From Kiritimatiellia bacterium (lineage in GTDB: Bacteria > Verrucomicrobiota > Kiritimatiellia > RFP12 > JBMNHG01): 64,000 bases of DNA. Below are positions 14,918 through 58,453 of the stretch, piece after piece. The translations under genes and the position numbers were made by a program. Under the pieces are notes generated by a model. The model had not been told where the DNA came from and made no database searches. It was given only the letters and a program-made list of their open reading frames with translations. Each line of letters starts with the position of its first letter. The stretch's first letter is position 1. The stretch lies in assembly GCA_050950285.1 (NCBI GenBank), contig JBMNHG010000011.1, forward strand, positions 62,001 to 126,000, given 5' to 3'.

Positions 14918-16384
14918 CTACCTCACGAACAGGAGCGTTCCGGACGGACGCTCGACCGTCAGGTAGACCGTCGAGCCCTCCGCCTTGAGTTTCGCCACAT
15001 AGCCGCCATCGCCCGTCGCCGTGCACGTCCAGTTTTTGAGGAGGTTCGCGCCCGAGAGCGTGCCGCAGGTGAAGAGCGGAAAATCGCGGGGCATGTCCTG
15101 GATGCCTTCGGAAACCGTCACGGCGACCGAGCCCGCGCCCGAAATCGCGAGCTCGCCCGAGACCGCCACCGCGTCGCAGGACGCCCCGCCCGCGTCGACC
15201 GCGATGGCGCAGCCGTTTTCCAGCGCAAGGTCGCCGTCTACCGTGAGGAGACCGATCGAGCCGGCGCCACCGGGCACGATCGAGGCGACGCCCATTCCGA
15301 CCGTGCGGAGCGTGCCCGCGCCCGAGAGGGCATCCGTCCGCGATGCGGCGAGGTTGAGCGGCGCAAGCGAAAGGTCGAGTTCCGCCCCCGACGCGATCGA
15401 AAGCGAATCGAACGACCAGCTGTTCGTCGCCGGCACGTCCGCGCCGTTCCACTTCTTGCGAAGATAGTCCTCCACCGCGAGCGCCGTCGCCAGATCCGGC
15501 GTGTTCGTACAGATGAGCGCCTCCGCGATGCGGATGCCGCCTACGACCTTGAAGTTCTGTGAATTGGCGAACGCGGAGGCGCCGATCAGTTTTCGCTCGT
15601 TTTCGGGACATTCTTCCAAGGGCGTCGGGATGAACACGGCGACGTTGAGACGCCCCATCGGCGGAACCGCCCAGCCGACGCTCGCCTCCCCGTTGAGCCG
15701 CACGACGTTGTTGTAGACGCGCGAGGGGCAATAGCTCGTATGGATCATGCGGCGGTACTGTCCGCGCAGGAACACGTTGAGGGGACAATTCCCCAGCAAG
15801 GTCGGGAATCCGCTGTTGTCGTCCAGCTCCGCGCACTCCGGACGATCCTCGAACACGAGGAAATAGGCGCCGACATCCGTGCAGGCCTCGCTGAAACTGA
15901 GGTAGGCGCTCCAGCGCCCCTCCCAGTTGAGGGAAACCCCGTTCGTCCTGGCGTTGGAGCCGCCGACGAGCCCGAAGTCGATGACGGGGAGCCCGTTCGT
16001 GTAATCCGGCTCGATCCATGGATTCTTCCGGTCATGCGTGAGGGTCAAGGACTTCGACGCATAACGCCCGTTCCGCGTCGTGTCGTCTACCCGGGTGATG
16101 AAGTTGGTCCCGTTCACCATCTGGAACGTGAACGTGTCGGTGCGCGCGGCGTCGATGTGGAGCCAGGCGCCGTCTGGAAGCCCGGTGTAGCGGAGCAGCC
16201 CCCCTTCCACCGCGATGGTGCCGACCCCGGCAAGCGAGTTGGTGTAGACCGCGCCGGACGAGACGGTGATCGTGCCGCCGGATGCGCCGCCGGCCCGGAC
16301 GGCGGCCGGAACGGACAAGGCCATCGCAAAGGCGAATGCAATGGCAGACAAAAGGACGCGGAAACGGAGAACAGGCAGGCTCAT
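14918..16384 (-). CDS. secreted passenger-like protein with terminal GTLLFVR motif
   Basis: Signal peptide; AWLHIDA...IAEALI LamG-like core; LSGAGTL, IVPGGAGSIGLLTVDGDL, RDFPLFTC; AAGGA 8 nt before ATG 16384 (alternative start 16393). Confidence 0.8.
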   Translation of the reverse strand: MSLPVLRFRVLLSAIAFAFAMALSVPAAVRAGGASGGTITVSSGAVYTNSLAGVGTIAVEGGLLRYTGLPDGAWLHIDAARTDTFTFQMVNGTNFITRVDDTTRNGRYASKSLTLTHDRKNPWIEPDYTNGLPVIDFGLVGGSNARTNGVSLNWEGRWSAYLSFSEACTDVGAYFLVFEDRPECAELDDNSGFPTLLGNCPLNVFLRGQYRRMIHTSYCPSRVYNNVVRLNGEASVGWAVPPMGRLNVAVFIPTPLEECPENERKLIGASAFANSQNFKVVGGIRIAEALICTNTPDLATALAVEDYLRKKWNGADVPATNSWSFDSLSIASGAELDLSLAPLNLAASRTDALSGAGTLRTVGMGVASIVPGGAGSIGLLTVDGDLALENGCAIAVDAGGASCDAVAVSGELAISGAGSVAVTVSEGIQDMPRDFPLFTCGTLSGANLLKNWTCTATGDGGYVAKLKAEGSTVYLTVERPSGTLLFVR

Positions 16385-16449
16385 GGCGGTCATCCTTGGG
16401 TCGAGGTTGTTTGTCGGCAGTTGGGGAATGCTCCTCCAGTGAAAACATA

Positions 16450-16478
16450 ATTTTATCCGACCAAGCGCAAATCGTCAA
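16450..16478 (-). promoter_or_regulatory. sigma70-like promoter for the 16384 operon
   Basis: TTGACG (16478-16473), 17-nt spacer, TAAAAT (16455-16450). Confidence 0.7.
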
Positions 16479-16616
16479 TCAAAGCCCGACATCCAAAGCC
16501 GCATTTTATAGGGCTTTTTCCTCGCAGGGGTCACTTGAACTTGCATGGGAAGGGGACTTCCCGTTAAAATACGGATGCCTGTTCAAACGGTTGCTTCGAA
16601 ACGAGGAGATGTCTGC

Positions 16617-17855
16617 ATGAAGAGGGCGGATCGGCAGGAATATCGCGATGTGACGGCGCTTGGCGTCCGCCCGGACGGGACGCAGGGCATCGAGGACGCG
16701 CTTTCCAAGGCGTTTGCGGCCGGTGTGCGGAAGCTCTATTTTCCACGCGGCGACTACCGCATCGACGGAACGCTGCGGATGCCGTCCGGCACGCATGTCG
16801 AGGCGGACGCGGAAGCGCGTGTCTTTTCCATCGCCGGAAACCGGGCGAACGAACTGGTCACGAATGCAGACTGGAAAGAGGGGAACCGGGATATCGCCAT
16901 ACGCGGCGGACGCTGGGACGGAAACTGCGGGGAGCGGGACGAGAATTCTTTTGATCCGGAGAAGGGATATGGCGGACGTTTCTTCCATTTTGTGAACCTG
17001 AAAGGGCTGCACGTCTCTGACCTGGAGGCGTTTGATTCGGTCACCTACCATTTCTCGCTGGCGCGTGTGACGGATTTCCGGTTCGCGAATCTGCGGATCG
17101 GCGGCGACCGCAGGCCGATGTGCCAGGACGGCATCCACGTCGGCGGCGGCTGCGAGCGGGGGCAGATCCACAACCTGATCGCGCATGCCGGCGGGATGGG
17201 CGACGACCTGATCGCGCTGAATGCCGACGACGTGTTTCATTATGTCTGGAACGACCAGCAGCAGGCGCTGCCGATCCGCGACATCACGGTGGAGAACATC
17301 GATGCTCCGGATTGCTTCACGGTGGTGCGTCTGCTGACGGTCGACCAGCCGATCGAGCGGTGCACGTTCCGCAACATCCGCGCCGGATTCCGGATACACG
17401 GGCTGAATCTGGATGCCGCGCGATACTGCATGCATCCGATGTTTCATGACCAGGATCGTCCGCACGGGGTCGGGGCGCTGCGGGACATCCTGTTTGAGAA
17501 CATCGATCTGTGGAACACGGGGGGGAATCCGGAGCGGGCGAGGGAGCTGGTGACATACGAGTCGAACGGGACAAACGTGGTGTTCCGCAACATGCGTCAT
17601 CGCTGCGATCTGGCGGAGTCACCGGCAGAGAAACGGCAGCCGTTGGTCCGGTTTCGGCATCTGGCGGCGACATCGCTGCTGGTGGACGGCGTGCGGCGCG
17701 AACTGGGCGAAGGCGAGATTTTCACGCTGGAGCAGAAGCGCGTGGACGAGTTGCGGATCGATCGGAAACCGACCGGTGACGGTCCGGGCGGCCGGCCGGA
17801 AAGAGATCCTGCCCATGCGGATTCCCGTCGGACCATCCGAAGGGCAAGCAGGTAG
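16617..17855 (+). CDS. right-handed beta-helix glycoside hydrolase (GH28-related/pectin lyase fold), no signal peptide
   Basis: GAGGAG RBS; DVTALGVRPDG...LYFPRGDYRI; QDGIHV...GDDLIALNADD. Confidence 0.8.
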   Translation: MKRADRQEYRDVTALGVRPDGTQGIEDALSKAFAAGVRKLYFPRGDYRIDGTLRMPSGTHVEADAEARVFSIAGNRANELVTNADWKEGNRDIAIRGGRWDGNCGERDENSFDPEKGYGGRFFHFVNLKGLHVSDLEAFDSVTYHFSLARVTDFRFANLRIGGDRRPMCQDGIHVGGGCERGQIHNLIAHAGGMGDDLIALNADDVFHYVWNDQQQALPIRDITVENIDAPDCFTVVRLLTVDQPIERCTFRNIRAGFRIHGLNLDAARYCMHPMFHDQDRPHGVGALRDILFENIDLWNTGGNPERARELVTYESNGTNVVFRNMRHRCDLAESPAEKRQPLVRFRHLAATSLLVDGVRRELGEGEIFTLEQKRVDELRIDRKPTGDGPGGRPERDPAHADSRRTIRRASR

Positions 17856-18148
17856 GCGCGGCCGGCACGGGAAGGGCCGGAACGGCATGCCGTCCCACAA
17901 CGGACCTGCCGGTGTGCGACGTCGCTTTTCCTGCATGAGCTTCCGTCCCCCTTCCCGCGAGCCCAGCCCGTCCGCCCGATGGTATGTGTATCATAACATA
18001 TTGCGCCGCAACAATTTAAAACAGCCTACAGAAAAACATGGGGACAAACGCCCCGGAATGTGCGACAATCCACCTGTCGTTTCAGGCGTGGCATGGTGCT
18101 GCGCAGCAGGGGCTTTGCACGAGCCTACAAAGACCGAAGGGAGACGTT

Positions 18149-21100
18149 ATGCGCAATCGATTCTTGTCCACGGTGTTCTCGGGTGTTTTTACGGCGATGG
18201 CTTTGCTGGCGCCTGCCCCGGCGGCCGCCGACACGACGATCGTCGATGACACGGCGATGTTCTCGTGGACTTTGGCTTCCGGCACGACGATCGTCGACGG
18301 GGCCTGGGTCAAAGTTCGAACCAACGACGATTCCGAAAGCCTGGTCGACAGCGGAACGTTGATCCAGGCGGGCAGGACGCTGGAGTTGAAGAACGGCGCC
18401 CGGGTTTCCACGGTCGGCCTCCGGCATAACACCGGCAGCGCCATCGCGATCAACAGCGGTTCGACCCTCGCGTACTCGCGGCCGTTTTTGGATGCCGACC
18501 TTTCCGGCGCGAAGAAGTTCGGCACGGTGTCGATCGACGGAGGTTCCGTGGCCGGGTTCGACCTGCATGCCTTGCACCCGTCTGGCTCGAGCGTCTTGCT
18601 CCCGTGGGCTTCCTGGTTCGCCTGCGTGGATTCGATCGCCGTCGGAAACAACGGCGCCACCTTCCTCACGCCCTCGAAACTCGCTTCCCTCGGGCCCCGG
18701 CTCGTGGCCGCCGACGGCGCCACGAATGCGTCGGTGACCGTCGACGGCGCGGCGGCGCTCGGCATGCGCTCCACGGCGCTGCCGGTGGCGGTGGCGTCGG
18801 GCGGCGTCCGTTTCGGCGTCCGCGACACGATGGCCTCCACCCGGAATCTCGCCGGGACGGTGGCGTTCGCTCCTGGAACCACGCTTCATCTTTCCGGGGA
18901 TCATTCCGCCGCGAAAATGGATGTGTCGTCCGCCCAGACGATCCTGTTGCATTCCGCCGGACTCGAGTCCGAGCGCGGAAACTGGGTGCGCAACGGATGG
19001 GCGACGATCCGGCCCGACGGCTATCTCCAGCTCGGCGATTCCAATGAGGCCTGGAACGACAAACTGTCCAACGGCTCCGTTTTCCGTCGCGAGAAGTTCC
19101 CGGTCGACACGTCGTTCACGGTCACGTTCAGCGCCATCGAAATGAACAACCGCGGAGGATCGTGGTATGATCAGGCGGGCGGCTTCGCGATCGTCTTCCA
19201 CAATTCATCCGCCGGGCTGGCCGCCGTGTCGACCGCGACCGGTCCCGCCGGGGCGTCGCTTGGCGGTTATTCCGGGACGGTGCAGCAAAACGCCGCGGCG
19301 GTCATCTTCACGGCCAACGACATTCCCAACCCCGCCGTGCGCAAGGTGTTCCTGGGCACGGGTTCCACGGTGACGGAGCTTGGCGGCTTCAATGCCTGGG
19401 ACACCATCACCAAGCGGAACTTCAATGCGCCGGTCCGATTCACCTTCGACTACGATGCCGTCAACAAGCGGGGCTCGGTTGCGATCGTCGATTCGCAGGA
19501 TGCCGGCGCGGCCGTGCAGTCTTTCGAGTTCGATCTCGATCTGGCGGCGCTGGTCGGGGCGGGGGAGGCGTATTTCGGGTTCACCGGCTCTTCCTACGGG
19601 GGATGGAAGGAAGGCGTCCACGTGATCGGGCAGGTCGACTACAAGCTGGCCGAGAGCGCGCCTCGCGTCTCCAAAGTCGGCGGCGCGATGGATCTGTCCG
19701 CCGGGGCGACGAGGAACTTCCGGACAAACGGAAGCGAACTCAACCACGGCTTCCTGATGGACACGCTCGTCTACGGGAATGGCACCACGCTGGACATCGC
19801 CAAACTCAACGAGAAGGACGACGCCTCCTCGTATGTCGGCTTCGAGAACCATTCCGGCTCCGGCACGCTGGTGAAGAGCGGCGCCGGGAACATCGGCTTC
19901 GCCGGTTCCGCAGCCCAAAACGTGGCGTTGAACGTGGCGGAGGGCGGCGTCGTGCTCCATGACGGCAAAGCGGGAGCCGATCCCACCGGCTGGGACTGGG
20001 TGTATTCCGACGGCCGCCAGGGCTCCGACTACCGCACCGTCGGGGATCATGGCGGCGTGGTCGTCGGCTGCGGCACCTACAACGCGGGATTCTGCGCAAC
20101 CACGAAAGACAAGTTCGACGTGTCCGGCGACTGGAGGTTTTCGGTCGACGTGTATCCCACGGGGCTGAATGCGGACGATTCGGTGGCCACGGATGCGATA
20201 GGCTACGCCTTCGGTCTCGCCTTCCACGATGATCCGCGCGGCGTCGGCTACACCCCGTCGACGGGGCATACGGCCGGTCTCTGCAATTCGCTGAAATACG
20301 GTGCCGGATGGGTGGCCTGCCCGTGCATCTGGTGCGGCGAGAATCGCCGGTTCGGTGCGCTCTTTTTCAATCCGTCCAATCCCGAGCACGCCTGCACCTA
20401 TCCCAACTACAGCGGCGGGACGACGCCCTTCACCCCCACTGCGATCGTGAATGGCGACGTCGTGCATGTGACGATGGAGTACTCGTCGGCCACGAAGGTC
20501 ATGACCTATTGGGTCGCCCACAACGACGAGGAGGGGCAAACGGTCACCTTTGCGGACGATCTCTCGGCACGCATCCGGTCGGGGCTGGCCCATCTGACGC
20601 TGAGCATCGGCACGAAAGACGCCAAAGGCATGCGCTGCGAATTTGCGAACATGAAGTTCGAACGCCTGGACGGCAAGAGCGAGGCCGTTTCGGTCGATTC
20701 GCTGGCTTCGCTGGCTTCGTCCGTCGCGGAATTGCCGGTGCGTTGCGAAGCGTCCGTCGCGGGTTCGTCCTTTGCGATCGAGACGGTGACGCTGCCGGAA
20801 AACGGCGGCCTGGCGGTCGCGGCCCCGTACGCGGCGGCCACGCTCCAGGTGGGAACGCTCGCGACGACGGCGGATGGGCGGACGTCGCTGGCCCTCGACG
20901 AAAACGCCACGGTGTCCGTGCAGACGTTTTCCGGGGCGAAGACGGTCACGGTCGAGTCCGGCACCCTGAAACTGACGTCGGTGGCGGCGTTGGATCGCGA
21001 TGCCGAATTGCTGTTGCTCGACGATGCCAAACTTGACCTCGATTTCGTGGGTACGATGCCTTTGCGTCGGGTCAAGCGCAATGGCGCCTTCGTCGGCGCC

Positions 21101-21184
21101 GTCCTGAATGCCGCCACCTGCGACTGGGTGGAGGGCACGGGTTCGCTCGCGAATGGTTTCGGAACGACGGTGATCCTCCGATGA
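18149..21184 (+). CDS. secreted passenger-like protein with two L-type (legume) lectin-like domains and terminal GTTVILR motif
   Basis: Signal peptide MRNRFLS...APAAA; WVRNGWAT...LQL, SFTVTF, GGFAIVFHN, AYFGFTGS; second copy FDVSGDWRFS, YAFGLAFHDD; GSGTLVKSGAG passenger repeat. Confidence 0.8.
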   Translation: MRNRFLSTVFSGVFTAMALLAPAPAAADTTIVDDTAMFSWTLASGTTIVDGAWVKVRTNDDSESLVDSGTLIQAGRTLELKNGARVSTVGLRHNTGSAIAINSGSTLAYSRPFLDADLSGAKKFGTVSIDGGSVAGFDLHALHPSGSSVLLPWASWFACVDSIAVGNNGATFLTPSKLASLGPRLVAADGATNASVTVDGAAALGMRSTALPVAVASGGVRFGVRDTMASTRNLAGTVAFAPGTTLHLSGDHSAAKMDVSSAQTILLHSAGLESERGNWVRNGWATIRPDGYLQLGDSNEAWNDKLSNGSVFRREKFPVDTSFTVTFSAIEMNNRGGSWYDQAGGFAIVFHNSSAGLAAVSTATGPAGASLGGYSGTVQQNAAAVIFTANDIPNPAVRKVFLGTGSTVTELGGFNAWDTITKRNFNAPVRFTFDYDAVNKRGSVAIVDSQDAGAAVQSFEFDLDLAALVGAGEAYFGFTGSSYGGWKEGVHVIGQVDYKLAESAPRVSKVGGAMDLSAGATRNFRTNGSELNHGFLMDTLVYGNGTTLDIAKLNEKDDASSYVGFENHSGSGTLVKSGAGNIGFAGSAAQNVALNVAEGGVVLHDGKAGADPTGWDWVYSDGRQGSDYRTVGDHGGVVVGCGTYNAGFCATTKDKFDVSGDWRFSVDVYPTGLNADDSVATDAIGYAFGLAFHDDPRGVGYTPSTGHTAGLCNSLKYGAGWVACPCIWCGENRRFGALFFNPSNPEHACTYPNYSGGTTPFTPTAIVNGDVVHVTMEYSSATKVMTYWVAHNDEEGQTVTFADDLSARIRSGLAHLTLSIGTKDAKGMRCEFANMKFERLDGKSEAVSVDSLASLASSVAELPVRCEASVAGSSFAIETVTLPENGGLAVAAPYAAATLQVGTLATTADGRTSLALDENATVSVQTFSGAKTVTVESGTLKLTSVAALDRDAELLLLDDAKLDLDFVGTMPLRRVKRNGAFVGAVLNAATCDWVEGTGSLANGFGTTVILR

Positions 21185-23379: not shown

Positions 23380-23406
23380 CCAGGGCGATGGGCGGAGGGC
23401 AGACGA

Positions 23407-25050
23407 ATGGACAAGATCGCGTTGACATCCGCGAGTTCCGGGACGTCCCCGCACGAAGCCGGCGTGCGCGATTTTGCGCCCACGCTGAAACCCTCGCAAC
23501 TGGAATTCCGGATTCGCCTCGCCGTGAAGCGTCTCCATTCCTATCCTGCGGATTCACTGGACTTCATCATGGAGGACCTCGAGCATCCGAAGGATTCCAT
23601 ACGCCATGCGCACCACTGCACGGCGGACATGACGGGGCGGACGATCGAGTTCTTTGGCGAGGCCATGCAGCTTCTGCCCGATCTTGACCGGAAGCCTGCG
23701 GAAATGCTTTTCGAACGCATGCTGAAGGCAGCTCCCGCATCGCCGCACCTTGCGCGACGGTTTTATCCGTATTACCGGCTGACGAAAGATCGCCGTGCGC
23801 TCGCGACGATCCTGGAGAACCTCGAAAGGTGCGAGGCTGCCGCGAAGTCGGCGGAAGGTCCGGCGTCCTTTGACAGCCCCTGGGCGAGCGTGATCGAGGG
23901 GATGGCCGATCGCTACGCGGAGACCCGCGACCGCCGCTGGCTCGATCTTGCCGAGGCCTACCAGGAACCCTCGCTCAAGACGGCGGGACGGCATGCGCAC
24001 GGACGGCTCACGGTCTTGCGGGCGCTCCTGAAAATGGCGAGGGTCAGCGGCGAGCGGAAGTTCCTGGATCGCGTCGAATCCGAATATCCGGAGCTTCTCG
24101 ACGCGGAACATGCGGACGGCTCGATCGCCGAGACGCTGCCGGACAGTTTCCGGACCGAAGGCTGCAGCATTGGCGACTGGCTGATCCTGAATCTCCGCCG
24201 ATGGGATCTGCTTCGGGACGGGCGATCGCTTGACCGCGCCGAACATACGCTTGTCAACGCCCTCTGGTTCAACCAGTTCGTGACCGGAGGCTTCGGCCAC
24301 CGGGATTTCCTTGGCCGAGGCTACGACAGCGGAGTCGAGGAGGCCTGGTGGTGCTGCACCATGTCCGGCGGCATGGCGATGTGCGAATTCGCACGGCACG
24401 CGGTCCAGCTCGTGGACGGAGTCATTCGCATCAACTTTCTCGTCCCCGGCATCTATCGCCTGGATGACGGGAAGGACGCGATGACCGTCGATCTCGATTC
24501 TTCTTATCCCGCCCGCTACGAGGCGACGGTGAAGACGGTCGGCGCCGGGGGGCGCGAGGTCGTTTTTCGCGTACCGGGCTATGTGAAGAACGCGAAAACG
24601 TCTCGGGAGGGCGATGTGTGGACGCTGCAAGGCGATATCGGGCACCATGCGGAGAAACGCCGCGGCGGCTGGACGGTCAAGTACGGGCCGCTCATGCTGG
24701 CGCCGATGATCTATTACTGGAAGAACGTCGGCAAGGTCTCCGAAGACGTCCCGAAAGGGTATGTCCCGGAATCGATCGAGCCCGAGGGGTTCGCCGTCGT
24801 CGAACCGAAGGAAAAGGACGGGAACGGCTTCTGGAAGGTCCGCGGCGGCGCCGCCGGACTTCCCGAGTGGCCGGCATACGACGACGGCCGCAATTCCCGC
24901 ACCGGGACGGATTTCCTGGCGCCCGCCTGGCTTGAGACCGTTGACGGCGCCGGCGTCCGGCGCGAACTGTATTTTCAACCCATGTCGTATCAGACGAGCA
25001 ACCTGACGCTGAGGTACGTGCCGATGGTGTTTGGTTTGATCGAGCGATGA
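23407..25050 (+). CDS. GH127/GH146-like beta-L-arabinofuranosidase family protein
   Basis: TEGCSIGDW, DRAEHTLVNAL, EAWWCCT, FRVPGY, YGPLMLA. Confidence 0.75.
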   Translation: MDKIALTSASSGTSPHEAGVRDFAPTLKPSQLEFRIRLAVKRLHSYPADSLDFIMEDLEHPKDSIRHAHHCTADMTGRTIEFFGEAMQLLPDLDRKPAEMLFERMLKAAPASPHLARRFYPYYRLTKDRRALATILENLERCEAAAKSAEGPASFDSPWASVIEGMADRYAETRDRRWLDLAEAYQEPSLKTAGRHAHGRLTVLRALLKMARVSGERKFLDRVESEYPELLDAEHADGSIAETLPDSFRTEGCSIGDWLILNLRRWDLLRDGRSLDRAEHTLVNALWFNQFVTGGFGHRDFLGRGYDSGVEEAWWCCTMSGGMAMCEFARHAVQLVDGVIRINFLVPGIYRLDDGKDAMTVDLDSSYPARYEATVKTVGAGGREVVFRVPGYVKNAKTSREGDVWTLQGDIGHHAEKRRGGWTVKYGPLMLAPMIYYWKNVGKVSEDVPKGYVPESIEPEGFAVVEPKEKDGNGFWKVRGGAAGLPEWPAYDDGRNSRTGTDFLAPAWLETVDGAGVRRELYFQPMSYQTSNLTLRYVPMVFGLIER

Positions 25051-28456: not shown

Positions 28457-28815
28457 TTTCTGAAAGCCGTTCGCGGCATGGAAGCATGTGCGCATGGGGG
28501 TATGGGAGTTGTCCATTGCCGTTCTCGTTCGCGTTCCCGGCGAAGCGGTACGGAAACGAGTGCGTCGATGACGCCCTTCGGAAACACGCCTTACACCGTC
28601 CCAACGGCCCACGCTTCCCCTTGTCATGGCCTGGGTTTTTCGCCTATGTTTTCCTTGGATTGATTGCGATGGGCTTGAAGGAGCCCAGGATCGGCCGAGG
28701 GCGAGGAAAACGGACAGGAATGACAGCGGGGAGCTCCGCCGCGAGGTCGATGCAGACGGTCGTGCCGTCGGGCAGGTCGTCCGGGCGCTCGGGGCGTCGG
28801 TCGATCCAGATGCCG

Positions 28816-29261
28816 TCGACGACCTGATCGCGCTCAATGCGAACGACGGCTTCTGCGCCCGGGAGGAGGGGCCGATATCCGACATCGGGATCGACGGCGT
28901 CTTCGTCAGCTATTCCCACAGCGCGGGCTGCATCGTGTGGAACGTTCCGATCCCGCCCCGACGATTTCCTTCGGGAGCGGCACGACCATCGCCAATCTTG
29001 TCGTGCGGGACTGCGTGCAGGAGAACCGCACCGATCGTCCGCTCGTCTTTTTGCAAAATCGCGGAAAAATCGTGAAAAAGACGATGGACGCCATCGCGCT
29101 GCATGCGGCTCCAGGGGCGGCGGAGAACATCCTCGAAACCGAGGAGAAGCTCTGGACCGACAAGGGGCATGTCGCCGATCTCGTCAAGGAGGGCAAGCCG
29201 GTGGACGGCTACTATCCCGACGCCAACCCCGGGGAATATTGAAAGGCAGATTGCCTATGGA
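28816..29261 (+). pseudogene. duplicated 3' fragment of the 25047 gene with a 274-bp internal deletion
   Basis: 28816-28926 matches 25738-25848 (5 mismatches by eye); 28921-29261 matches 26117-26457 (3 mismatches); the blocks join at a shared GCGCGG. Confidence 0.9.
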
Positions 29262-29550: not shown

Positions 29551-29991
29551 ATGAAACCATTGCGCAGCGCTTGTTTCGCGATTCCGGTGATCGTCCTGGG
29601 GGCGCTTGCCGCTCCCTCGGCGTTGGCGGACGCCAATTTCAACAACGCCACCGGCGACTATCTGTGGTTCAATCCGTTGAACTGGAGTGGAAACACGCTC
29701 CCGCTTCCCTCGGATTGGACGTACATCAACAATTCCGCCATGGCGGCGGACAAGAAGACGAGCGAGACATCGCCCGCCATCCTCCACAGCGCAACGGAGA
29801 CGGCCGACGTCACCTTCCTGCATCTGGGCTGGGGCGCGGGCGATTCCGGATGGCTGGACGTCCAGTCCGACCTCAATGCGCTGGCCAGCACCGTTGCGAA
29901 CTCCCAGAATGCTCAAGGGGGGCTTCGTTTCTCCGGCGGCGCCGTTTCGCTCTATTTCCCGCCGCGAAGAACCCTGGTGACCATCCGCCAG
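29551..29991 (+). pseudogene. chimeric relic: first 130 codons of the 34188 gene fused to a 30023-type C-terminal tail whose stop is read through
   Basis: 29551-29940 matches 34188-34577 (3 mismatches in 390 nt); 29941-29991 matches 31898-31948 at 43/51 nt with TAG to CAG, so the ORF runs on to 30174. Confidence 0.85.
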
Positions 29992-30022
29992 GCGCAAAAT
30001 CGTTCCAAAGAAAGGCAAACCC

Positions 30023-31948
30023 ATGAAACCAGCATACGCCATAGTCTTGTTCGCAATCGGCTGTCTCGCCGTTCCACGCCTGTCGGCGCAGGACTTTCAG
30101 CCAATCGCGACCAACAGCACGGTCAACGTGACCAACAACGCCGTCGTCGCCGTAGCGGAGACGGAGGTGCTTGAAACCGTCGTCACGACCAACCTCGCGA
30201 CGTATGTCGGCCCCGAAACAAAAAGCTCGGGCTTCATCGCCGCCAACTGGGACGTCGACGAGGTGCCGACCAACACGGTCGAATCCGTCCATGGGCGCTA
30301 CGACGTCCTCGACGTCTCCAGTTTCATCGACTACACGGACTGTTTCACGAACTGGATCGAGGAGCTCGACGGCTACGGCGTGTTCACCACCAACTACTGG
30401 ACGCTGCAAACCAACGTGGTCGATTTCGTCACGAACCACGTCGGCCAGTACGACATCGTCATCGATGGCAATTCGGAACAGGACTCCGTTGTGGAATTCT
30501 CGACGGCGAATCCATCCACGGCATACGGCTTCGTCACCGTTTCCGAAAACGACACCGTGGAGTTTCGCAATGCCAATGCGACGGTGTGGCACCGTGTCGA
30601 GGGCTTGCGGAACGCGGGAACGTTCGAGGTTTTCGCTTATTCGGGCTCGAAGAACGGCAGGGATTGCTACACAACCATCGCCTCCGCCGTGACCAATCTC
30701 CCCGGCGCGACGATCCATGTCCAAGTGCCGTCCACTGGCCGCAATCAGAACGACGCGGCGTTGACGCTGCCATTCGAAGGCTTCGTCAATCACGGCGACG
30801 TCCACATGATCCAACAAGTCTCGGATCGGAACACGGCGACCCTCTCGCTCTCCGGCGATGGCGGAACCTTCGTCAACAACGGCCTGGTCTGGCTGAGCGC
30901 CCGCGGGTCGCGCAACGATGGACGAAATTCCACTTACGCCGGGTTGTATTTTACCGCCGCGACGCACAACATCCATGGCACGTTGACGGGAACGGGGCGG
31001 ATCTGGATGGAGGAGCGGAACAAGGATCCGGCCCATCCCCGGCAAGTCCGCATCAACTCCTCGTCCACCTGGCTGACGCTCACGAACGACGTCGCCCACG
31101 CCATCGAAGGTTCCGGCCTCATCGAAGGCGGAATCTGCCTGATGAATGCGGGGCTGGTGATGCAGACCGGGACGAACGGGCACCTCGACTTGAGGCAGCC
31201 GACGATGTACAACGACTATTCTGGAACCTTGTCGAGCTGGCAGAAGCGCATCATCAACCTGCCGACGGGGCGCATGGTCGCCGCCGGCGGCGGCGGGAGG
31301 GGGCTCTTCATCGGCAATACGGACACGAAAGACAGGCGTCCAAACGGCTTCGAGAACTACGGGTTGCTGGAGGCGCGGACAGGCGCCTTCATCTCGTTCC
31401 GCAAGAACACCACGCAAGGGGAAGGCACAAGCATTTACGACATCCCCGAGATCCTTGTCCAATCCGGCACCTGGGCCGGCGGGGGCGAGTTCCACACGCT
31501 GCGCCCGCTCCAGCTCGACGACAACGCCGTTCTTTCTCCGGGCGACCTCCATGCGGAGGATGCGTTTGGCAGCGTTCTGACCAATGGCACCGGGGTTTCC
31601 ACCTTCGGGTTGCTCACATTCACCAACGCGCTCATTCTCTCCAGCGCCACGACGCTCGACTTCCAGTTCCACGACGCGGAGGAGGGGCGCGGCATGGGGT
31701 ACGACTCGGTTCATGTCGGCGGCCCGTTGACGCTCGACGGCGTGCTTGACGTCTCCGCGCCCAGCGGTCACATCCGGGAAGGGGACTATACGCTTTTCAC
31801 GTGCCCTCCCGGCGAACTGACCGACAACGGCCTTGAGCTCGGCAGCATTCCCGACGGAAGCGGGACGCCCATCATCGATGTCGACGCCGATGCCGGCACC
31901 GTTTCGCTCTCCTTCCCGCCGAGGAAAACCCTGGTGATCATCCGCTAG
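30023..31948 (+). CDS. secreted passenger-like beta-helix protein with terminal KTLVIIR motif
   Basis: GAAAGG RBS; signal peptide; FVNHG/FVNNG/FENYG repeats; VLSPGD...FGLLTF, YDSVHVGGPLTLDGVLDV, GDYTLFTC. Confidence 0.8.
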   Translation: MKPAYAIVLFAIGCLAVPRLSAQDFQPIATNSTVNVTNNAVVAVAETEVLETVVTTNLATYVGPETKSSGFIAANWDVDEVPTNTVESVHGRYDVLDVSSFIDYTDCFTNWIEELDGYGVFTTNYWTLQTNVVDFVTNHVGQYDIVIDGNSEQDSVVEFSTANPSTAYGFVTVSENDTVEFRNANATVWHRVEGLRNAGTFEVFAYSGSKNGRDCYTTIASAVTNLPGATIHVQVPSTGRNQNDAALTLPFEGFVNHGDVHMIQQVSDRNTATLSLSGDGGTFVNNGLVWLSARGSRNDGRNSTYAGLYFTAATHNIHGTLTGTGRIWMEERNKDPAHPRQVRINSSSTWLTLTNDVAHAIEGSGLIEGGICLMNAGLVMQTGTNGHLDLRQPTMYNDYSGTLSSWQKRIINLPTGRMVAAGGGGRGLFIGNTDTKDRRPNGFENYGLLEARTGAFISFRKNTTQGEGTSIYDIPEILVQSGTWAGGGEFHTLRPLQLDDNAVLSPGDLHAEDAFGSVLTNGTGVSTFGLLTFTNALILSSATTLDFQFHDAEEGRGMGYDSVHVGGPLTLDGVLDVSAPSGHIREGDYTLFTCPPGELTDNGLELGSIPDGSGTPIIDVDADAGTVSLSFPPRKTLVIIR

Positions 31949-34191: not shown

Positions 34192-35999
34192 AACCATTGC
34201 GCAGCGCTTGTTTCGCGATTCCGATGATCGTCCTGTGGGCGCTTGCCGCTCCCTCGGCGTTGGCGGACGCCAATTTCAACAACGCCACCGGCGACTATCT
34301 GTGGTTCAATCCGTTGAACTGGAGTGGAAACACGCTCCCGCTTCCCTCGGATTGGACGTACATCAACAATTCCGCCATGGCGGCGGACAAGAAGACGAGC
34401 GAGACATCGCCCGCCATTCTCCACAGCGCAACGGAGACGGCCGACGTCACCTTCCTGCATCTGGGCTGGGGCGCGGGCGATTCCGGATGGCTGGACGTCC
34501 AGTCCGACCTCAATGCGCTGGCCAGCACCGTTGCGAACTCCCAGAATGCTCAAGGGGGGCTTCGTTTCTCCGGCGGCACCGTCACCTACGGCCGGGGCAT
34601 CACCTGCGGCCAGCAACTCAACGCCACCGGCGTGGTCGAGATCGCCGGCGCCGCAGTCTCCGCGGCGCCCACGGTTGACTACAACATCAAGCTTGGCGAA
34701 AACGGAAGCGGCGTTCTCCGCATGAAATCCGGCACCTTGCGCACGGTCGGCGATCTCATTCCCGGCAACAATCCGACGGCGTCCGGCACGGTCGACGTTT
34801 CCGGCGGCTCGATGTGGATTGGCCGCAGCATCGGCCACTGGATGGGCAGGGCGGCCTATCGGCAGTCGGGCGGCTTCGTCTCGATCGGGAACACGCTGAC
34901 CCTTGGATCCGGCGTGAACGGCACGGTCCCGAGCCAGGGCAGCGCCGACATTTCCGGCGGGACGCTCGTCGTCTCGAACAAGCTCTTTGCCGGGCAGAAC
35001 GGGAGCTGCAACTGGAGCCAGACCGGCGGTGACGTCCGGGTCGGCAATGGCGGCGTCGTTTTCGGGCTTGGCGCCTACAGCGTCGTCGACGCCTTGTTCG
35101 ACGGCGCGGACACGACGTTCGCCACCTCCGGCGAAATCTACCTTTCCAGCGGCAATGGCAGCGTCGCGACCCTGACGCAGAAGGCCGGGGCGCTGACGAC
35201 GCCCATCTTCAACCTCGCCAGCAAGAGCAACGCCGTCGCCCGCTACGTCCTGGAGGGCGGCTCCCTTTCCGTCTCGAATGTTTTGCGCGTGGGGTTTAGT
35301 GGATTCGGCGCCTTCGAGCAGTCGGGCGGCAACGTCTATGTGAAAAACAACATCCATCTTCCGTTCCAGAACAAGGACGCCTACAATTTTGGCGTCGAGT
35401 CGGTTTACCGCATGACGGGCGGCACGCTGCGGAACGACGGCTTCACGAGGCTGGGGGTCGGCGGCGGACGCGGACGTCTGGAACTGCTGGGCGGCACGGC
35501 CACGTTCGGCAACTTCGTGTTCGTCGGCAACGGGAACCTGCTGGGTCGGCAGGGGCGCGGCACGCTGCTCCTGGGCGGCGAGGTGAACGCGACGTTCCTC
35601 GGCGAGACGACAATCGGGGCGGAGGACACGGACTCCCGCGGCACGCTTCACGTCTGCGGCGGCGGCACGGGCGAGCGAAAATTCCAGGGGAACCTCTATC
35701 TGCGCAACGCCCCCACGATCAAAGCCACGATCGACGGGAAGGGGCTCAACCCCGTGACGGTCAACGGCTACCTCGAGGTCCTCTCGCCCGTGACGCTGGT
35801 CCCGGATCATACAAAGGACGCGAAGCCCGGCACGTACACCGTTCTGCAGTACACCAGCGCGCTGGTCCAGTCTCAAGGATGCGATTTCGCCTTCGACCCC
35901 TCGGTGGACACCGCCCGCTGGAAGTTCGACTTCGATCCCGTGGCGAAGACGCTGACGCTGACCTTGAGAGACCGCGGCACCACGATCATGGTTCGCTGA
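34188..35999 (+). CDS. secreted passenger-like beta-helix protein with terminal GTTIMVR motif
   Basis: AGGAG RBS; signal peptide; WFNPLNWS; many (Q/M/L/I)(S/T)GG coils; PGTYTVLQY. Confidence 0.85.
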   Translation: MKPLRSACFAIPMIVLWALAAPSALADANFNNATGDYLWFNPLNWSGNTLPLPSDWTYINNSAMAADKKTSETSPAILHSATETADVTFLHLGWGAGDSGWLDVQSDLNALASTVANSQNAQGGLRFSGGTVTYGRGITCGQQLNATGVVEIAGAAVSAAPTVDYNIKLGENGSGVLRMKSGTLRTVGDLIPGNNPTASGTVDVSGGSMWIGRSIGHWMGRAAYRQSGGFVSIGNTLTLGSGVNGTVPSQGSADISGGTLVVSNKLFAGQNGSCNWSQTGGDVRVGNGGVVFGLGAYSVVDALFDGADTTFATSGEIYLSSGNGSVATLTQKAGALTTPIFNLASKSNAVARYVLEGGSLSVSNVLRVGFSGFGAFEQSGGNVYVKNNIHLPFQNKDAYNFGVESVYRMTGGTLRNDGFTRLGVGGGRGRLELLGGTATFGNFVFVGNGNLLGRQGRGTLLLGGEVNATFLGETTIGAEDTDSRGTLHVCGGGTGERKFQGNLYLRNAPTIKATIDGKGLNPVTVNGYLEVLSPVTLVPDHTKDAKPGTYTVLQYTSALVQSQGCDFAFDPSVDTARWKFDFDPVAKTLTLTLRDRGTTIMVR

Positions 36000-48914: not shown

Positions 48915-50765
48915 TCAGCGAACGAGCAGGATGGTGCCGTTGCGCTCCGGAACGGCGATGGCGAGTTCGAACGGATCCGACGTGTCGAGCGAGACATCCT
49001 CCGGGAGGTCGAGGATCACATCCGTCAGATCGACTTCGTCCGTCCCCGCCAGGCGTCGCGACGACGAGAAGAGGACGATGCGCCCGCCATCCAGGTATTT
49101 GGGGCTCACCGCGACCCGCAGGGTCGTGCCCGCCTCGAGGTTGAGGCGATATCCCGTGACGGGGACGTTGCCGAATCCTTCCTTCGGGATGTTGAACGAA
49201 AGGACGGCCGAACGCCTCGTCTGAATGCCGTCAATGAGTTGGAGCACGGAGTTCGTCCCGCCGACGACGAGGTGCGCCCGGTTGCCCGAGGTGTTGCCGA
49301 AGCCGACGAAATTGGCGAGGACCGTGGCGTTGGAAACGACGAGCCTGCAATCGTCGGCGTAATCGCCGATGTACATGTACGGCACGCGCAGCAACCCGCC
49401 GTTGACCACTTCGATGACGCTGTTCGATGCGGAGGCGGTCCCGCTGCAGTTGAGGCTGTTGCCCGGGCTGTAGAACTCGCCGCCGTCGCATACGAGCCGT
49501 GCGCCGGAGCCGCTGTTGCCGACGAACGAGCGTCTCGTCCAGGTCGTGCCCGCCTCGTTGCGGATGGAGAGCTTTGCGCCATCCTCGATTCGGAGGACGC
49601 CCTTGGTGCTTTTTGCTTGCATGCCGATGCGAAGGGTGCCGTTGGTGATCGACATCTCGGCGCCGTCGTCGAGGACGGCTTCGCTGTCCACGGATTCCAC
49701 ATCGCCAATGTAGACTTCGCCGGCGACATCCACTTTCGTGCCGCTCCCGGTCGCGACGAACCGGTTCCCGGTGGGCGGAGTCGGATCCGCGGATCGACCG
49801 GAGCGGGTCGCCCCGACGGTCACGCCGTTTGACACGGAAAGATGGGCTCCCCCCGACACCGCCACGAGGTTGGAATGGGTGACGTAGCCGGCATACAGCC
49901 TCCCCCGAATCGACGCCGTGGCGCCGTCCCGGACTTCGAGCCGGTTCTCGGAACTGAACTTCGATACATCCCTGCCATTGTCCAGATCCCAGCCCAGTTG
50001 GAGCGGCATGTTCTTCCGCTGGACGAAGGTGGCGCCGTTCGACACCACCAGCGCGCTCCCCGGCCCCAGCCCGCCGATGCCCGTGCAGGGCACGACCGTG
50101 TCTTCCGGGATGATGAACGTCGGTCCTTCCCCCGTGATTTCGACGACGTTGTTGCTGGCGGCGTAGTTCCAACACCCCATCCTGAGTCCACCGGAAAGGG
50201 TGCCGCCATTTCGGACCGTAAGGCGGTTCCAGCCTCTGCCCTGCCCGAATTGCAGGACGCCACGTCCGAGCGAAAGGCAGGCGTCGGGGCCGTCCACGAC
50301 GTACGTGCCGCCTGCGCCGCAGTCGCCGACGTACGCCGTGCCGGTGCTGTCGTCCGCAAGGCCGATGGTGCCGCTCACCAGGGTGAGTTTCGATCCGGCG
50401 CCGTATTCCCAGGACGCATTCCGGTTGCTGTCCATGCGGAACCGGTTCTGCCCCTGCACTTTTTTCCCGGCTCCAAGGTCGACCGTCGCCCAGACGCCAT
50501 GCTGTTGGTAGCAGTACCCGAAGTCGAGCTCGCCAACGAGAAGCGAGGTGGAGTTGGCGAGGACGAGGCGGTCGCTGGCGCTCCCGTAGATGATCATCGC
50601 TTTGTCCGCGCTCCCCGGCACGGTTCCGCCCCATTTCGCCGGATCATCCAGCGACGCGCCGTCGGAGACGTAAAGGATCGCGCCCTGTGCGGCGGAGGCG
50701 AGGATCGTCGAGACGACGATGGCCGATTTCAAGGTCGATTGGAATCCCGGGCGAGTTCTTTTCAT
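48915..50765 (-). CDS. secreted passenger-like beta-helix protein with terminal GTILLVR motif; paralog of the 58453 gene
   Basis: GAAAGGAAAGG RBS; signal peptide; repeated L(T/E/V)V(R/S)(N/D)GA coils; GGRIVLFS...LDLPEDVSL. Confidence 0.85.
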   Translation of the reverse strand: MKRTRPGFQSTLKSAIVVSTILASAAQGAILYVSDGASLDDPAKWGGTVPGSADKAMIIYGSASDRLVLANSTSLLVGELDFGYCYQQHGVWATVDLGAGKKVQGQNRFRMDSNRNASWEYGAGSKLTLVSGTIGLADDSTGTAYVGDCGAGGTYVVDGPDACLSLGRGVLQFGQGRGWNRLTVRNGGTLSGGLRMGCWNYAASNNVVEITGEGPTFIIPEDTVVPCTGIGGLGPGSALVVSNGATFVQRKNMPLQLGWDLDNGRDVSKFSSENRLEVRDGATASIRGRLYAGYVTHSNLVAVSGGAHLSVSNGVTVGATRSGRSADPTPPTGNRFVATGSGTKVDVAGEVYIGDVESVDSEAVLDDGAEMSITNGTLRIGMQAKSTKGVLRIEDGAKLSIRNEAGTTWTRRSFVGNSGSGARLVCDGGEFYSPGNSLNCSGTASASNSVIEVVNGGLLRVPYMYIGDYADDCRLVVSNATVLANFVGFGNTSGNRAHLVVGGTNSVLQLIDGIQTRRSAVLSFNIPKEGFGNVPVTGYRLNLEAGTTLRVAVSPKYLDGGRIVLFSSSRRLAGTDEVDLTDVILDLPEDVSLDTSDPFELAIAVPERNGTILLVR

Positions 50766-50865
50766 GGCGAACGTTTCCTTTCCTTTCAGTGAATGGTTCC
50801 TTGTCGGTGAATGGCTCTTCCCACGCCACCATCGTAAGGTTTCCCGTTTGCGGGACAAGTGCATT

Positions 50866-50895
50866 ATGCGTAAAAAAACGTTTCATTTTGCGCAC
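50866..50895. promoter_or_regulatory. candidate regulator binding site, copy of 59888-59917
   Basis: ATGCGTAAAAAAACGTTTCATTTTGCGCAC, 26/30 identical to the site upstream of the XylR-type gene; imperfect palindrome. Confidence 0.6.
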
Positions 50896-56000: not shown

Positions 56001-56488
56001 TCGAACTGGAACGGCAGATCGTCCTTCTGCCCGCCGCCGCTGATCCAGAGCGCCGCCGCCGCATTGTCGAAGCAGTCGAGATAGCGCGGATACGCGCCGT
56101 CCGCGACCGGCGCGAGCGCGCGGGCGGCGAGCGCCTTGCGGACGGCGTCCGCGTCGGAGCCGAAAATCTCGACGGTCTTCTCCCCGACGACGCCGAGCCC
56201 CCAGGCGCCGACGCCGTCGAGCGACAGGACCGTGGCGCCACCCCCTTCGGCGCGCAGGTCGCCGAACCCCTGCAGATCGCGCTTGCGCTTCGACGCGAGG
56301 CGCATCGCCGTCGCGGCATCCCGGAGCTTGAACTCCGTGATCTCCAGCGCCCCGTCCGTCGAGCGCGCGACCTCGACCGTGCCGAAACCGCGGCAATCGA
56401 CTTTGAACGCCGGGGCCGGCGCATCGCCGAGGGCGATCATCGCACTGCAGGAGAGGAGGAGGGAAGCTTGCGCAATGGTCTTCATCAT
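53006..56488 (-). CDS. large secreted beta-galactosidase-like mosaic (GH42-like barrel and trimerisation domain plus jelly-roll domains)
   Basis: Signal peptide; LRAIRSVDPERPI, SCEQG, LKAWVERGGTFV, IGNGRLI; LDLRGKW...LRAGENEI, VPEAWKGRRV, LVRFDGPNTL. Confidence 0.65.
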   Translation of the reverse strand: MMKTIAQASLLLSCSAMIALGDAPAPAFKVDCRGFGTVEVARSTDGALEITEFKLRDAATAMRLASKRKRDLQGFGDLRAEGGGATVLSLDGVGAWGLGVVGEKTVEIFGSDADAVRKALAARALAPVADGAYPRYLDCFDNAAAALWISGGGQKDDLPFQFEYLRDQGLAMCTSMPGVDRLLGPGIADYTLFDYNDAMARKYGIGYRQLLFGDVVSRGWFWNRYPLPYALPAEGFRDAPYCFRSLQALVGYYEPTGFERYEWDFRRRLAERYGDPEGPLLGWHGCDEIPTATITDLSSVARTPIVIELWKRNHEGDVPVAEDFLGPGPKLDLRGKWELRHAATDLATEIDSADMTVLLANSLDRKAPSPFTLLRTFTAPDGDLARWRFLHSAVAHCHGSRTLPPTVTVNGVECPRVAPEVDWSFCYDLSAALRAGENEIVLDTRGANLPGYCFLNATPLRGYFDMTEEENRRFFEAIEFSAALRCHYIEGNLRAIRSVDPERPIKLMATHSFYDHSLALCRRYGAYQHDTGGAAAFWAPMQGDGYSRSHRLPFSCEQGGPPQDAAQLRANISRYLNYGNSAADLVFSVQHYTRDPEIRAWLEDNIELVHALGKMRQPAPRIAVLRSTRMERLGFHDIWDWDIGRGTVQATGRTLSYIETCDLADPDILDQLDVIVDDATFLLTDAECEGLKAWVERGGTFVAQHHTGRHSIEKRDAWPLPRVFGIERNDADATEHPIGNGRLIRLGTPRHALDATWFAALFDRLDIPRDSVPPHPRFWGEAFESKNGLYDLYLATYMTSLHGRENIDKVDSFRATFRRAAPPREVRDFGVKGHPRVDAAWADGAFSIPEREYAGMESKLYAVPADDPGGAACRWIRAFAETWHPVETVEWTEPAVAPDPDRVALDSGWIHNGREVDLGTYATMGIPENEDAAFSRTVAVPEAWKGRRVELVYDARFWFWGLYPAAELDVNGRPAALEQPIRPQRSGSFALDVTEAAATGNIRLDLRILPSLRAPGHTTSPTGSTGLFLLVCHPPVDETIPLDGPWFACLRVGEREPVRPGETKVHNFYETTFTLPESARGKRIRLRYSRSLSGLALNGYLLDIDKSLQTLDITGLVRFDGPNTLRLVRWVDRLWPSVGAGVPKIEDCNELGEASLEILK

Positions 56489-56560
56489 GGTTCGTCGGGG
56501 CTGTGCGTGGGTCGGTGTGTCGTGGCGGTGTCCTGCGACAGGGCTGCCGGGGCCCCCTCG

Positions 56561-58453
56561 CTACCGGACGAGCAGGATGAGCCGATGCCGGTTGTGCATG
56601 TGGAGAACGACCTCTTTCGGCCCCGGAATCTCGACGCTGACGTCATCGGGCAGGTCGAAGGTGACGTTCGAGAGGTCGATGGTGTGATCCGGGTGGTTCG
56701 CCTTGAGGATCGTGATCCTTCCGCCATCCATCCGCCGGGGATCGTCTGTCACCTTGATCCGTGTCGGCTTGTTGAAATTGAACCGGTACGCGTTGATTTG
56801 CAATCGCTCGGTGGGCTCGCGTCCGATGTGGAACTGGATTTCCGTCCCGTCGCCCTGGACGGCGAAATCGCCGTAGGGCCGGATGAGCGAGTTCGTCCCC
56901 GCAAGCGACACGACGTTGCCCGTGCCACCGTCGGGGCCGATGTTAAACGCACCGTTGGGGCTGACTTCGATCGTGGCGTTGGAGACGGCCACCACGCCGC
57001 CGTTCGCACAGCCGACCGCAAAGGAAAGGGCCCGGAAAAGCCCGCCGTTCCTTACATCGACCCGCCACGACGCATTCGTGCCGAAGCCGTATCGCCCCGA
57101 TCGCAACGGCTGCCGATACGAGTCGAACGTGCCGCCATCGACCTCGACACAGGCGCCGGCGCCGCCGAAACCGATGTCGCTCGGGTTGTAGCCTGTTCGG
57201 CATAGCTCCAGCGTCGCGCCGGAACGGATGGAGAGCACGCTGTTGGTGTAGCCCCAGCCGCCCACGCGCAGGAGACCGTTTGTCACATACATGCGGGCGC
57301 CGTCCTCGATGTCCACGCGGGCGCCCAGGGCCGGCCCGCGATCCGCTTCTTTTTCCCACGTGCCGGCTCCCACCATCAGGACGCCGTTGGTGATGTCCAA
57401 CGTCGAGCCCTCGCCGGAAACGAGGACGCGGTTGCCCACGAGCGGCTGGCCGAGCAGCGGCTTGTCCCACCACGTCCGGAAGAAGGACACGCCGAGATTC
57501 GCGCCATGGATGACGAGCGAGCCGCCGTCCACGATTTCGACCGAATTGGACGAGCCGTGCCGACCCGCCCAGACCGCGCTCTTCGTCCGGACCTTGCCGC
57601 CGTTGCGCACGATGAACCGGTTGCCGTCGCCACCGCTGGCTTCGCCATGACGCGCGCCTACGGAAATCATCGCCCCCGTGTTGTCGACGACCATCTCCGC
57701 GCCGTCGGCGACGATGAAGTCGTTGTAGCAGCCGGAGCCTCCGACGGCCATGCGCGAGTATTCGCAATAGCCGTCGACATACAAGTTGGCCTCCGGCGGG
57801 ATCGTGAAGCGCGAACCCGCTCCCGAGACGAGCACCGTGTTGCTGACGCTGCTTCGATACAGGCCCATCGAATGGACGTAGCCCTCGAACTGGCCGCCGT
57901 TGATGATTTCCAGCCTGGCGCGGCTCTTGCTCCGTGCGAAGCGGAGCCCGGTGTCCTTGGCGAGCGGCGTGACGTATTTCGCGTCCGGGCCGTCGATGAT
58001 GAACGTGTTGCCGTTGTTGTAGTCGTCGCCGATTTCCGCCTGGCTGGCGGACGGCGTCGAGCCCACGGTGCCGCTTGCCAGACGGATGCGCGATCCGCCC
58101 GCGACCTCGAATTTGTTCGTCGCGAGAAGCGTCTTGCCGACGCCGAGCGCGAGCGTGTTCGTGGTGCGGTAGTTCCACTGCCCGAAACCGAGTTTCGCGA
58201 CCGTCAGCGAATCCCCGAGGGTGAAGGGGGAGGAGACGGTCTTGTGGAACTGGAGGGTCGATTCTTCATCGGGCGCCGCGATGTCGGGGCTTCCCCACAC
58301 GCTGCCGCCCTGGTCGATGTCGCCGCCCGCCGCTGCCGCCCAGGTGAGCGTCCGCGGGACGGCGGAGGAAACGCCGGCCGCCAGCGCCAGGGCAAGCGCC
58401 AGCGCGATCCGTTTGACCGATACATTGAGGTTTGTCGCCAATTTCGTTGTCAT
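56561..58453 (-). CDS. secreted passenger-like beta-helix protein with terminal RLILLVR motif; paralog of the 50765 gene
   Basis: GAAAGGA RBS before ATG 58453; signal peptide; (I/V)xNGG and VSGxGS coils; MDGGRITILK...FDLPDDVSV. Confidence 0.85.
   Translation of the reverse strand: MTTKLATNLNVSVKRIALALALALAAGVSSAVPRTLTWAAAAGGDIDQGGSVWGSPDIAAPDEESTLQFHKTVSSPFTLGDSLTVAKLGFGQWNYRTTNTLALGVGKTLLATNKFEVAGGSRIRLASGTVGSTPSASQAEIGDDYNNGNTFIIDGPDAKYVTPLAKDTGLRFARSKSRARLEIINGGQFEGYVHSMGLYRSSVSNTVLVSGAGSRFTIPPEANLYVDGYCEYSRMAVGGSGCYNDFIVADGAEMVVDNTGAMISVGARHGEASGGDGNRFIVRNGGKVRTKSAVWAGRHGSSNSVEIVDGGSLVIHGANLGVSFFRTWWDKPLLGQPLVGNRVLVSGEGSTLDITNGVLMVGAGTWEKEADRGPALGARVDIEDGARMYVTNGLLRVGGWGYTNSVLSIRSGATLELCRTGYNPSDIGFGGAGACVEVDGGTFDSYRQPLRSGRYGFGTNASWRVDVRNGGLFRALSFAVGCANGGVVAVSNATIEVSPNGAFNIGPDGGTGNVVSLAGTNSLIRPYGDFAVQGDGTEIQFHIGREPTERLQINAYRFNFNKPTRIKVTDDPRRMDGGRITILKANHPDHTIDLSNVTFDLPDDVSVEIPGPKEVVLHMHNRHRLILLVR

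Follow-up and report, generated by a model that had tools for sequence, protein, structure and literature searches.

Several secreted proteins encoded in a 64,000-nucleotide stretch of a Kiritimatiellia genome (contig JBMNHG010000011.1, positions 62,001 to 126,000; hereafter the window) end in the same seven-residue tail, in its strict form Gly-Thr, four hydrophobic residues and a final Arg (G-T-h-h-h-h-R). To judge from sequence, this tail, or tag, behaves like a candidate C-terminal sorting signal without a published description. We put a probability of roughly 0.6 on the reading that it is a minimal signal of this kind, a bare β-strand that would be read in the periplasm for outer-membrane export or surface display. 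The original prediction, which drew attention to six such ends, knew of no named model for them, and comparison with sorting-signal models agrees: Pfam and NCBIfam hold no model of the tail, and none matched it on the last 60 residues of eight tagged proteins or on whole window proteins. A description of the tag was not found in the open-licence literature, including the available portions of PMC4804311, PMC10994853, PMC3169554, PMC7949064, PMC12618676 and PMC1569441, from which all citations below are drawn.

In the genome around the window (4.05 Mb, 99% complete), 2409 genes were called with a custom codon model. The strict pattern terminates 78 of these genes, where 0.28 would be expected from the internal frequency of the motif, an excess at gene ends of ~280-fold. 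The same pattern ends 8 of 10159 shadow open reading frames (ORFs); among the shadow ORFs that score highly, several are remnants of tagged genes. A profile trained on the same 78 genes that it scored gives 78 matches of ≥12 bits at the C-terminus, no more than one at any offset from 1 to 59, and 14 in 979,443 internal windows. The consensus (n = 78) has Gly in 68, Thr in 63, four hydrophobic residues, and Arg in 73, with Pro common at positions −11 to −8. Lys or Arg at −7, which the pattern first proposed allows, (G/K/R)-(T/L)-hydrophobic-R, is thus an exception genome-wide.

Signal peptides, called by a simple heuristic, are present in 62 of the 78 tagged genes and in 490 of the 2331 others, and the motif is therefore commoner on signal-peptide proteins, as had been anticipated. 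Most of the 16 tagged genes without one proved on inspection to be fragments or to have a wrongly called start, while another is a membrane protein that matched by chance; a membrane helix occurs in one of the 78, a chance membrane-protein match. Tagged proteins are long (median 998 amino acids [aa] vs 354 aa) and make up 77,664 of the 1,116,756 coding residues of the genome (~7%).

The tail is not the last strand of one homologous domain, because the preceding domains of its carriers are unrelated: the 90 residues before it fall into 45 sequence clusters among 82 tagged genes, a count that may conceal remote homology among β-helix caps. Pfam searches of 43 tagged proteins and the two C25 peptidases identified β-helix, Gly-rich, LamG, PKD, F5/8, PATR, subtilase, GDSL and C25 domains. 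The early statement that no enzyme ends this way is correct inside the window, but tagged subtilase, GDSL and C25 proteins occur elsewhere in the genome, and the tag is not restricted to non-enzymatic passengers. We also note a prepilin-type protein (PF07963) with a tag-like tail (L143, at C3:511594-512577 of G000, the window's genome), whose paralogue at C2:14877 has a read-through end.

Judged by analogy, the tag lies outside the T9SS (type IX secretion system) C-terminal domains, PEP-CTERM and the autotransporters, and its nearest parallel in working would be the strand that closes a T9SS domain. Like the T9SS domains of Bacteroidota and relatives (PF13585, CHU_C type B; PF18962, type A), it is strictly terminal and is carried by diverse signal-peptide cargo. 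It also has their terminal strand pattern, G-x-h-x-h-h-R, and the letters G-T-h-h-h-h-R end, in the same register, two type B and one weak type A domain among 25 collection-wide matches. The T9SS signal is carried by the last strand, which is essential (PMC4804311), within a seven-stranded domain that requires five motifs over 100 residues (PMC12618676). In contrast to that folded domain, the tag is seven residues long and is accompanied by neither a domain match nor PorP/SprF; no 70–100-residue β-sandwich (PF13585, PF18962) was matched on the last 60 residues of the eight tagged proteins or on the window proteins. PEP-CTERM (TIGR02595, with exosortase PF09721; PMC1569441) resembles the tag in being C-terminal, in its many copies per genome and in its diverse signal-peptide cargo, but the tag has no PEP, membrane helix or basic cluster and occurs without a detectable exosortase.

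Lineage range and an Fn3-like counterpart

Eight of nine records with tagged proteins are labelled Kiritimatiellia, Verrucomicrobia or Lentisphaerae. The ninth (L123) is labelled Clostridiales, carries a typical tagged protein and is possibly mis-binned. Outside the class the strict DNA pattern has at most two matches in each of 201 genomes. A looser pattern reaches at least five matches in 20 of the 37 genomes that belong to tag-bearing families vs 1 of 43 others, groups that were defined partly by the tag itself (family f2, first set as negative, carries variant tails); 19 of the 33 looser-pattern matches in the 43 other genomes were inspected, and every one of the 19 falls in a frame that is short or looks non-coding. 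In 51 of 52 genomes a variant DNA pattern is no more frequent than in controls, and the sole excess, in G287, is a dispersed DNA repeat. This repeat, on C1 of that genome, is 24 bases long and accounts for ~60 of 100 listed matches, on both strands. In a tree of the secretin GspD, one branch (support 70/99) separates 11 rows with the tag from 9 rows without it, and a single tag change is seen in 100% of 200 bootstrap trees; the split is consistent with one origin of the tag and vertical descent, and does not speak to co-evolution. Together the DNA-pattern scans and the tree restrict the tag to one branch of Kiritimatiellia, and the lineage specificity suggested at the outset is upheld.

The terminal Arg, first thought to be invariant, is not, and the last residue varies by lineage: Tyr or Phe in G110, Gln in G011, His, Tyr, Arg, Gln or Lys in family f7, and His, Gln, Lys or Arg in G293. 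Among the 150 best representatives of one tagged family, found with a search profile that included the tail, 138 end in Arg or Lys, Gly is at −7 in 92, hydrophobic residues are at −4 in 148 and at −2 in 144, and Arg or Ser is frequent at positions −3 and −5. The constant feature of the tails appears to be an unpaired strand of fixed length.

A second terminal module provides a counterpart. This is an Fn3-like domain of ~75 residues (W..F[YF]RV; the 'FYRV' end domain), which is a class-wide domain of Verrucomicrobiota, is terminal in all 18 of its matches in the window's genome, and has no Pfam or NCBIfam model. Its structural model (pLDDT 90.6) has no Foldseek match at E 0.001 and a best fold-match Z of 8.4, for what is a common arrangement. 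The model aligns only to the first three quarters of fibronectin type III (FnIII) domains (e.g. 3mpc residues 6–78 of 96, Z 7.7), so that the domain is predicted to be without the last strand of a normal FnIII, and its end strand without the usual partner. It shares with the tag a strictly terminal position, the same cargo families and an apparently exposed terminal strand; it differs in being folded, ~75 residues long and class-wide, and its function is equally putative.

The two modules replace each other on the same cargo. One example is the C25 peptidases, both of which end in the tag in the window's genome, while at 20 C25 loci elsewhere eight genomes have an Fn3-like end, ten have nothing beyond the catalytic domain and the tag is found in none. 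A second example is the choice-of-anchor Q domain, whose end is followed by the tag in 26 of the 82 tagged genes here, and also in G218, G266, G155, G251 and G293; of the 30 best loci elsewhere, 13 have the Fn3-like domain at the end and not one has the tag there. Moreover, a homologue of the small tagged partners described below ends in CRFFRVVFR, an intergrade of the two endings. Because of this replacement and the intergrade tail, we infer that the tag and the Fn3-like domain are alternative forms of one signal.

Small tagged proteins encoded beside Rhs-type giants

A family of ~200-residue tagged proteins (1147 representatives; no named family was found for it) sits directly upstream of untagged Rhs-type giants. 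This arrangement is present in 7 of the 18 copies in the window's genome, in all four informative metagenome loci (of seven), and at four loci in three other families (G301, G038, G071). It suggests that the tag can be supplied in trans by small partners of untagged Rhs giants. At six loci elsewhere (L041–L047) a tail-less C25 peptidase gene has after it a small gene whose product ends in the Fn3-like domain; these may be organised in trans in the same way.

In G000 the small tagged gene and the Rhs-type gene form a cassette found at 18 places (e.g. C2:213195-221427), with a 5′ region that is 97–100% identical in most copies. Eleven of the 18 are without an intact small gene, and several keep only its start and tail. 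Other small tagged genes have different neighbours: a 196-aa tagged gene precedes two FGE-type genes, and a 78-aa tagged protein (L136, G000 C3:844011-847441) lies beside what we take to be reverse transcriptase-like and FGE-type genes, a pattern that may reflect a diversity-generating retroelement. The most reduced example is a 63-residue ORF in G003, with little beyond a signal peptide and the tag, located between unrelated genes.

Export routes and competing explanations

If the tail is a sorting signal, a simple sequence of events can be proposed. The predicted N-terminal signal peptide would take the cargo across the inner membrane, leaving an end that, as read from the sequences, has a short and often Pro-rich linker, Gly at −7, and a strand that is hydrophobic at −4 and −2 and keeps a constant spacing from the free carboxyl. 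A component of the periplasm or the outer membrane may then pair with the unpaired strand and commit the folded protein to export or display. The tag would thus do the job of the class-wide Fn3-like end domain, one branch having reduced the signal to a bare strand, and proteins with an occupied C-terminus, such as the Rhs giants, would borrow the tag from the small partner encoded just upstream.

The co-occurring translocase or protease that the original prediction expected was not found: the distribution of the tag is followed neither by PorP/SprF nor by a dedicated Omp85 or a C25 peptidase. PorP/SprF (PF11751) has no match at E 1 in the 99% complete genome, with controls matching only below the cut-off, and SprA (PF14349) has no match in the genome, nor in any control genome. 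C25 peptidases were rejected as the sortase, being present in 36 of 80 genomes, including tag-less families, and missing from the tag-rich G071, G203, G065, G131 and G137. A second Omp85 was rejected as the reader, with orthologues in 3 of 69 genomes and one Omp85 in most tag-rich genomes. A 339-aa barrel suspected of being PorP-like (L019, G000 C8:147985-149004) looks instead like an outer-membrane omptin, with no Pfam match. Secretins are in 44 of 44 genomes, a count that is uninformative, and the recurring neighbours at 65 tag loci are only Rhs and housekeeping genes, with no machinery gene among them. The remaining candidates for the reader are universal machinery, namely BamA, several secretin systems and the T2SS (type II secretion system) operon. 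Amuc_1099- and Amuc_1100-like genes are present in the window's genome, and a 2727-aa TPR protein encoded directly upstream of an Amuc_1098-1102-like secretin cluster (L034, G000 C8:660087-675899) is a further candidate.

The most likely route that can be named is a T2SS without a detectable GspC, an assignment we make tentatively and with the odds somewhat against it; it is also the least secure step of the scheme. A single-copy operon, gspE-F-G-H-I-J-K-L-M-D, is class-wide, with and without the tag (19 genomes, L231–L250; GspD of 730–1007 aa; gene names other than GspD and a PilN-like gene were read from the sequences by inspection), and 76 of 79 genomes have a GspG homologue. In G000 the T2SS regions are at C6:58795-63538 and C6:373209-377892, with a pseudopilin cluster, and GspD has N0, N and secretin domains. 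GspC (PF11356) was matched in none of five genomes, while controls matched; a very divergent GspC might have gone undetected. In E. coli, GspC binds the GspD N0 domain by strand augmentation (PMC3169554), so with no detectable GspC the N0 edge could be free, and may be a site at which cargo pairs. Known T2SS signals likewise act on folded periplasmic cargo, and an Fn3 domain carries determinants (PMC7949064); the Pel3 Fn3 domain is among the fold matches of the Fn3-like domain (4u49, Z 6.8, rank 26). The known loops, however, are read with GspC, whereas the putative signal here is a linear terminal strand without it. The fullest version, in which a GspC-less T2SS reads a linear, transferable C-terminal strand, on the Fn3-like domain or as the bare tag, and small partners export untagged Rhs giants in trans, is doubtful as a whole.

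Several observations weigh against these proposals. The T2SS is equally present in tag-less genomes, and profiling lends it no specific support; tag-bearing T2SS operons have no extra gene in the 20 regions compared, where a crude gene caller missed genes and called only GspD in G017; and there are five other secretin loci in the window's genome. Known T2SS signals (the Pel3/PelI Fn3 loops) are composite loops and not a linear tail (PMC7949064), and the 50 best fold matches of the Fn3-like domain include no T9SS domain. Most large secreted proteins are untagged, the tag being on 36 of the 123 proteins >1000 aa with a signal peptide. At two loci in G071 the small partner lies after and not before the Rhs-like locus, and at two loci in G050 and G311 it has no Rhs neighbour. 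Finally, the letters G-T-h-h-h-h-R also end four YkuD domains, where they form an ordinary structural strand, and three membrane transporters, so the likeness to the T9SS strand may be convergence.

Among the competing explanations, the one that survives best is that the tail is a docking strand for retention, which plugs into a scaffold after export, for example by completing the Fn3-like domain in the manner of dockerin and cohesin. The empty last-strand position of that domain, the coexistence of the two modules in the window's genome (~28 Fn3-like domains, counted by pattern, vs 82 tags) and the hydrophobic character of all four inner tag residues there would suit such a role; but the Fn3-like domain also occurs in families in which the tag is absent, and the replacement of one module by the other, together with the intergrade tail, fits poorly with pairing between them. 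We consider docking unlikely.

It is quite unlikely that the tail plays no part in sorting and instead stabilises the protein as a last strand or cap, protects it from tail proteases or marks it for quality control in the periplasm. The YkuD strand shows that the same letters can be structural, and the genome has PDZ matches in two ORFs, which we take to be tail-specific and DegP-type proteases. However, the tag follows unrelated folds, even in ORFs of 63 and 78 residues, homologues fold without it, and its bias to the secretome is strong.

Very improbable is a barrel-less autotransporter, in which the tail mimics a β-signal and pairs with BamA, which threads the passenger out. The β-signal of the β-barrel assembly machinery (BAM) is G-x-x-h-x-h, and the tag matches it in having Gly and alternating hydrophobic residues (−4 and −2) at the extreme C-terminus; 10 of the 12 tagged ends listed for G110 finish in Tyr or Phe, PATR and β-helix domains are in part of the cargo, and a scan of 43 tagged proteins gave no barrel of the PF03797 type, in line with the original prediction. 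Classical autotransporters (type Va secretion system, T5aSS) differ in having a C-terminal barrel that ends in an aromatic residue. Against a BamA route, the last residue is Arg in 73 of 78 and aromatic in one, much of the cargo is globular (C25, subtilase), there is no dedicated Omp85, and TamB was not found. A truncated PEP-CTERM processed by exosortase, for which the Pro-rich linker before G-T-L-L and the presence of exosortase in 41 of 43 class genomes might be cited, is largely refuted, in line with its early dismissal, by the absence of PEP or PDP from the last 30 residues of all 78 proteins, an uncharged run of only 6–10 residues in 75 of 78, the single basic residue, the coexistence of true PEP-CTERM proteins in the window's genome, and the lack of an exosortase match in two tagged genomes of family f7, G218 (93% complete, at least 14 real tagged genes) and G003 (100% complete, one).

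Tagged genes in the window and significance of the tail

All six tails first reported are present with a stop codon directly after each (Table 1), the sixth in degenerate form. Scored with leave-one-out profiles, the first five reach 18.8, 15.0, 12.8, 13.9 and 20.0 bits and the sixth 2.9 bits; in the other 22 of the 28 called window genes the score is never above 0.4.

Table 1. Tagged genes and a tag-bearing relic in the window (tag coordinates are those of the tag codons).
Feature	Position	Strand	Tail	Tag position	Remarks
Signal-peptide protein, 491 aa	14918..16393	−	GTLLFVR	14921-14941	No Pfam family
Signal-peptide protein	18038..21184	+	GTTVILR	21161-21181	Weak lectin-like match
Chimeric relic	29551..30174	+	RTLVTIR	29968-29988	Stop lost; 5′ part of 34188 gene and tail of 30023 gene
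Signal-peptide protein, 641 aa	30023..31948	+	KTLVIIR	31925-31945	
Signal-peptide β-helix protein, 603 aa	34188..35999	+	GTTIMVR	35976-35996	
Signal-peptide protein	48915..50864	−	GTILLVR	48918-48938	
Paralogue (28%) of 48915 gene	56561..58531	−	RLILLVR	56564-56584	Degenerate tail
Seventh tagged gene, frameshifted	1..2619	−	ATLLIIR	378 bases before window start	F5/8 domain

The relic peptide that had been described is present at 29956-29988, but its Arg has no following stop and is not terminal. The relic is composed of 412 bp from the 34188 gene's 5′ end (98.8% identity) and 59 bp resembling the 30023 gene's 3′ end (84.7%). Just before it, at 28813-29261, lie partial copies that are nearly identical to the 25047-26438 gene (99% over 341 bp, 95% over 114 bp), and look like signs of local recombination.

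The next gene on the same strand after each of the six tagged genes is untagged and encodes a signal-peptide protein, in several cases with carbohydrate-enzyme or binding domains, and the 18038..21184 gene overlaps the start of a GH42-like gene. Genome-wide, this order is found for 18 of 50 tagged genes vs a background of 217 of 1462. The claim that the cores differ (LamG-like, double lectin, β-helix) could be checked in part: there is a weak legume-lectin match in the 18038 gene, and the single-sequence model of the 34188 gene has a predicted β-helix core (mostly pLDDT 60–89, with the last 116 residues <50), for which fold searches gave no match at E 0.001 and only weak matches to autotransporter passengers (best E 0.038).

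Giant barrel-less proteins are exported by Verrucomicrobiota-type cells without type IX secretion, and we found no paper explaining how; the seven-residue tag makes this question testable. If the T2SS does read the tag, it would be a defined linear T2SS signal, of a kind not described in the available portions of the papers cited, and about the smallest outer-membrane export tag. It would then bear on the long-open problem of how the T2SS chooses its cargo, and would offer a very small export handle for engineering. The tag also makes it possible to predict which proteins a mostly uncultured lineage exports, marking ~7% of the coding residues in the genome described here.

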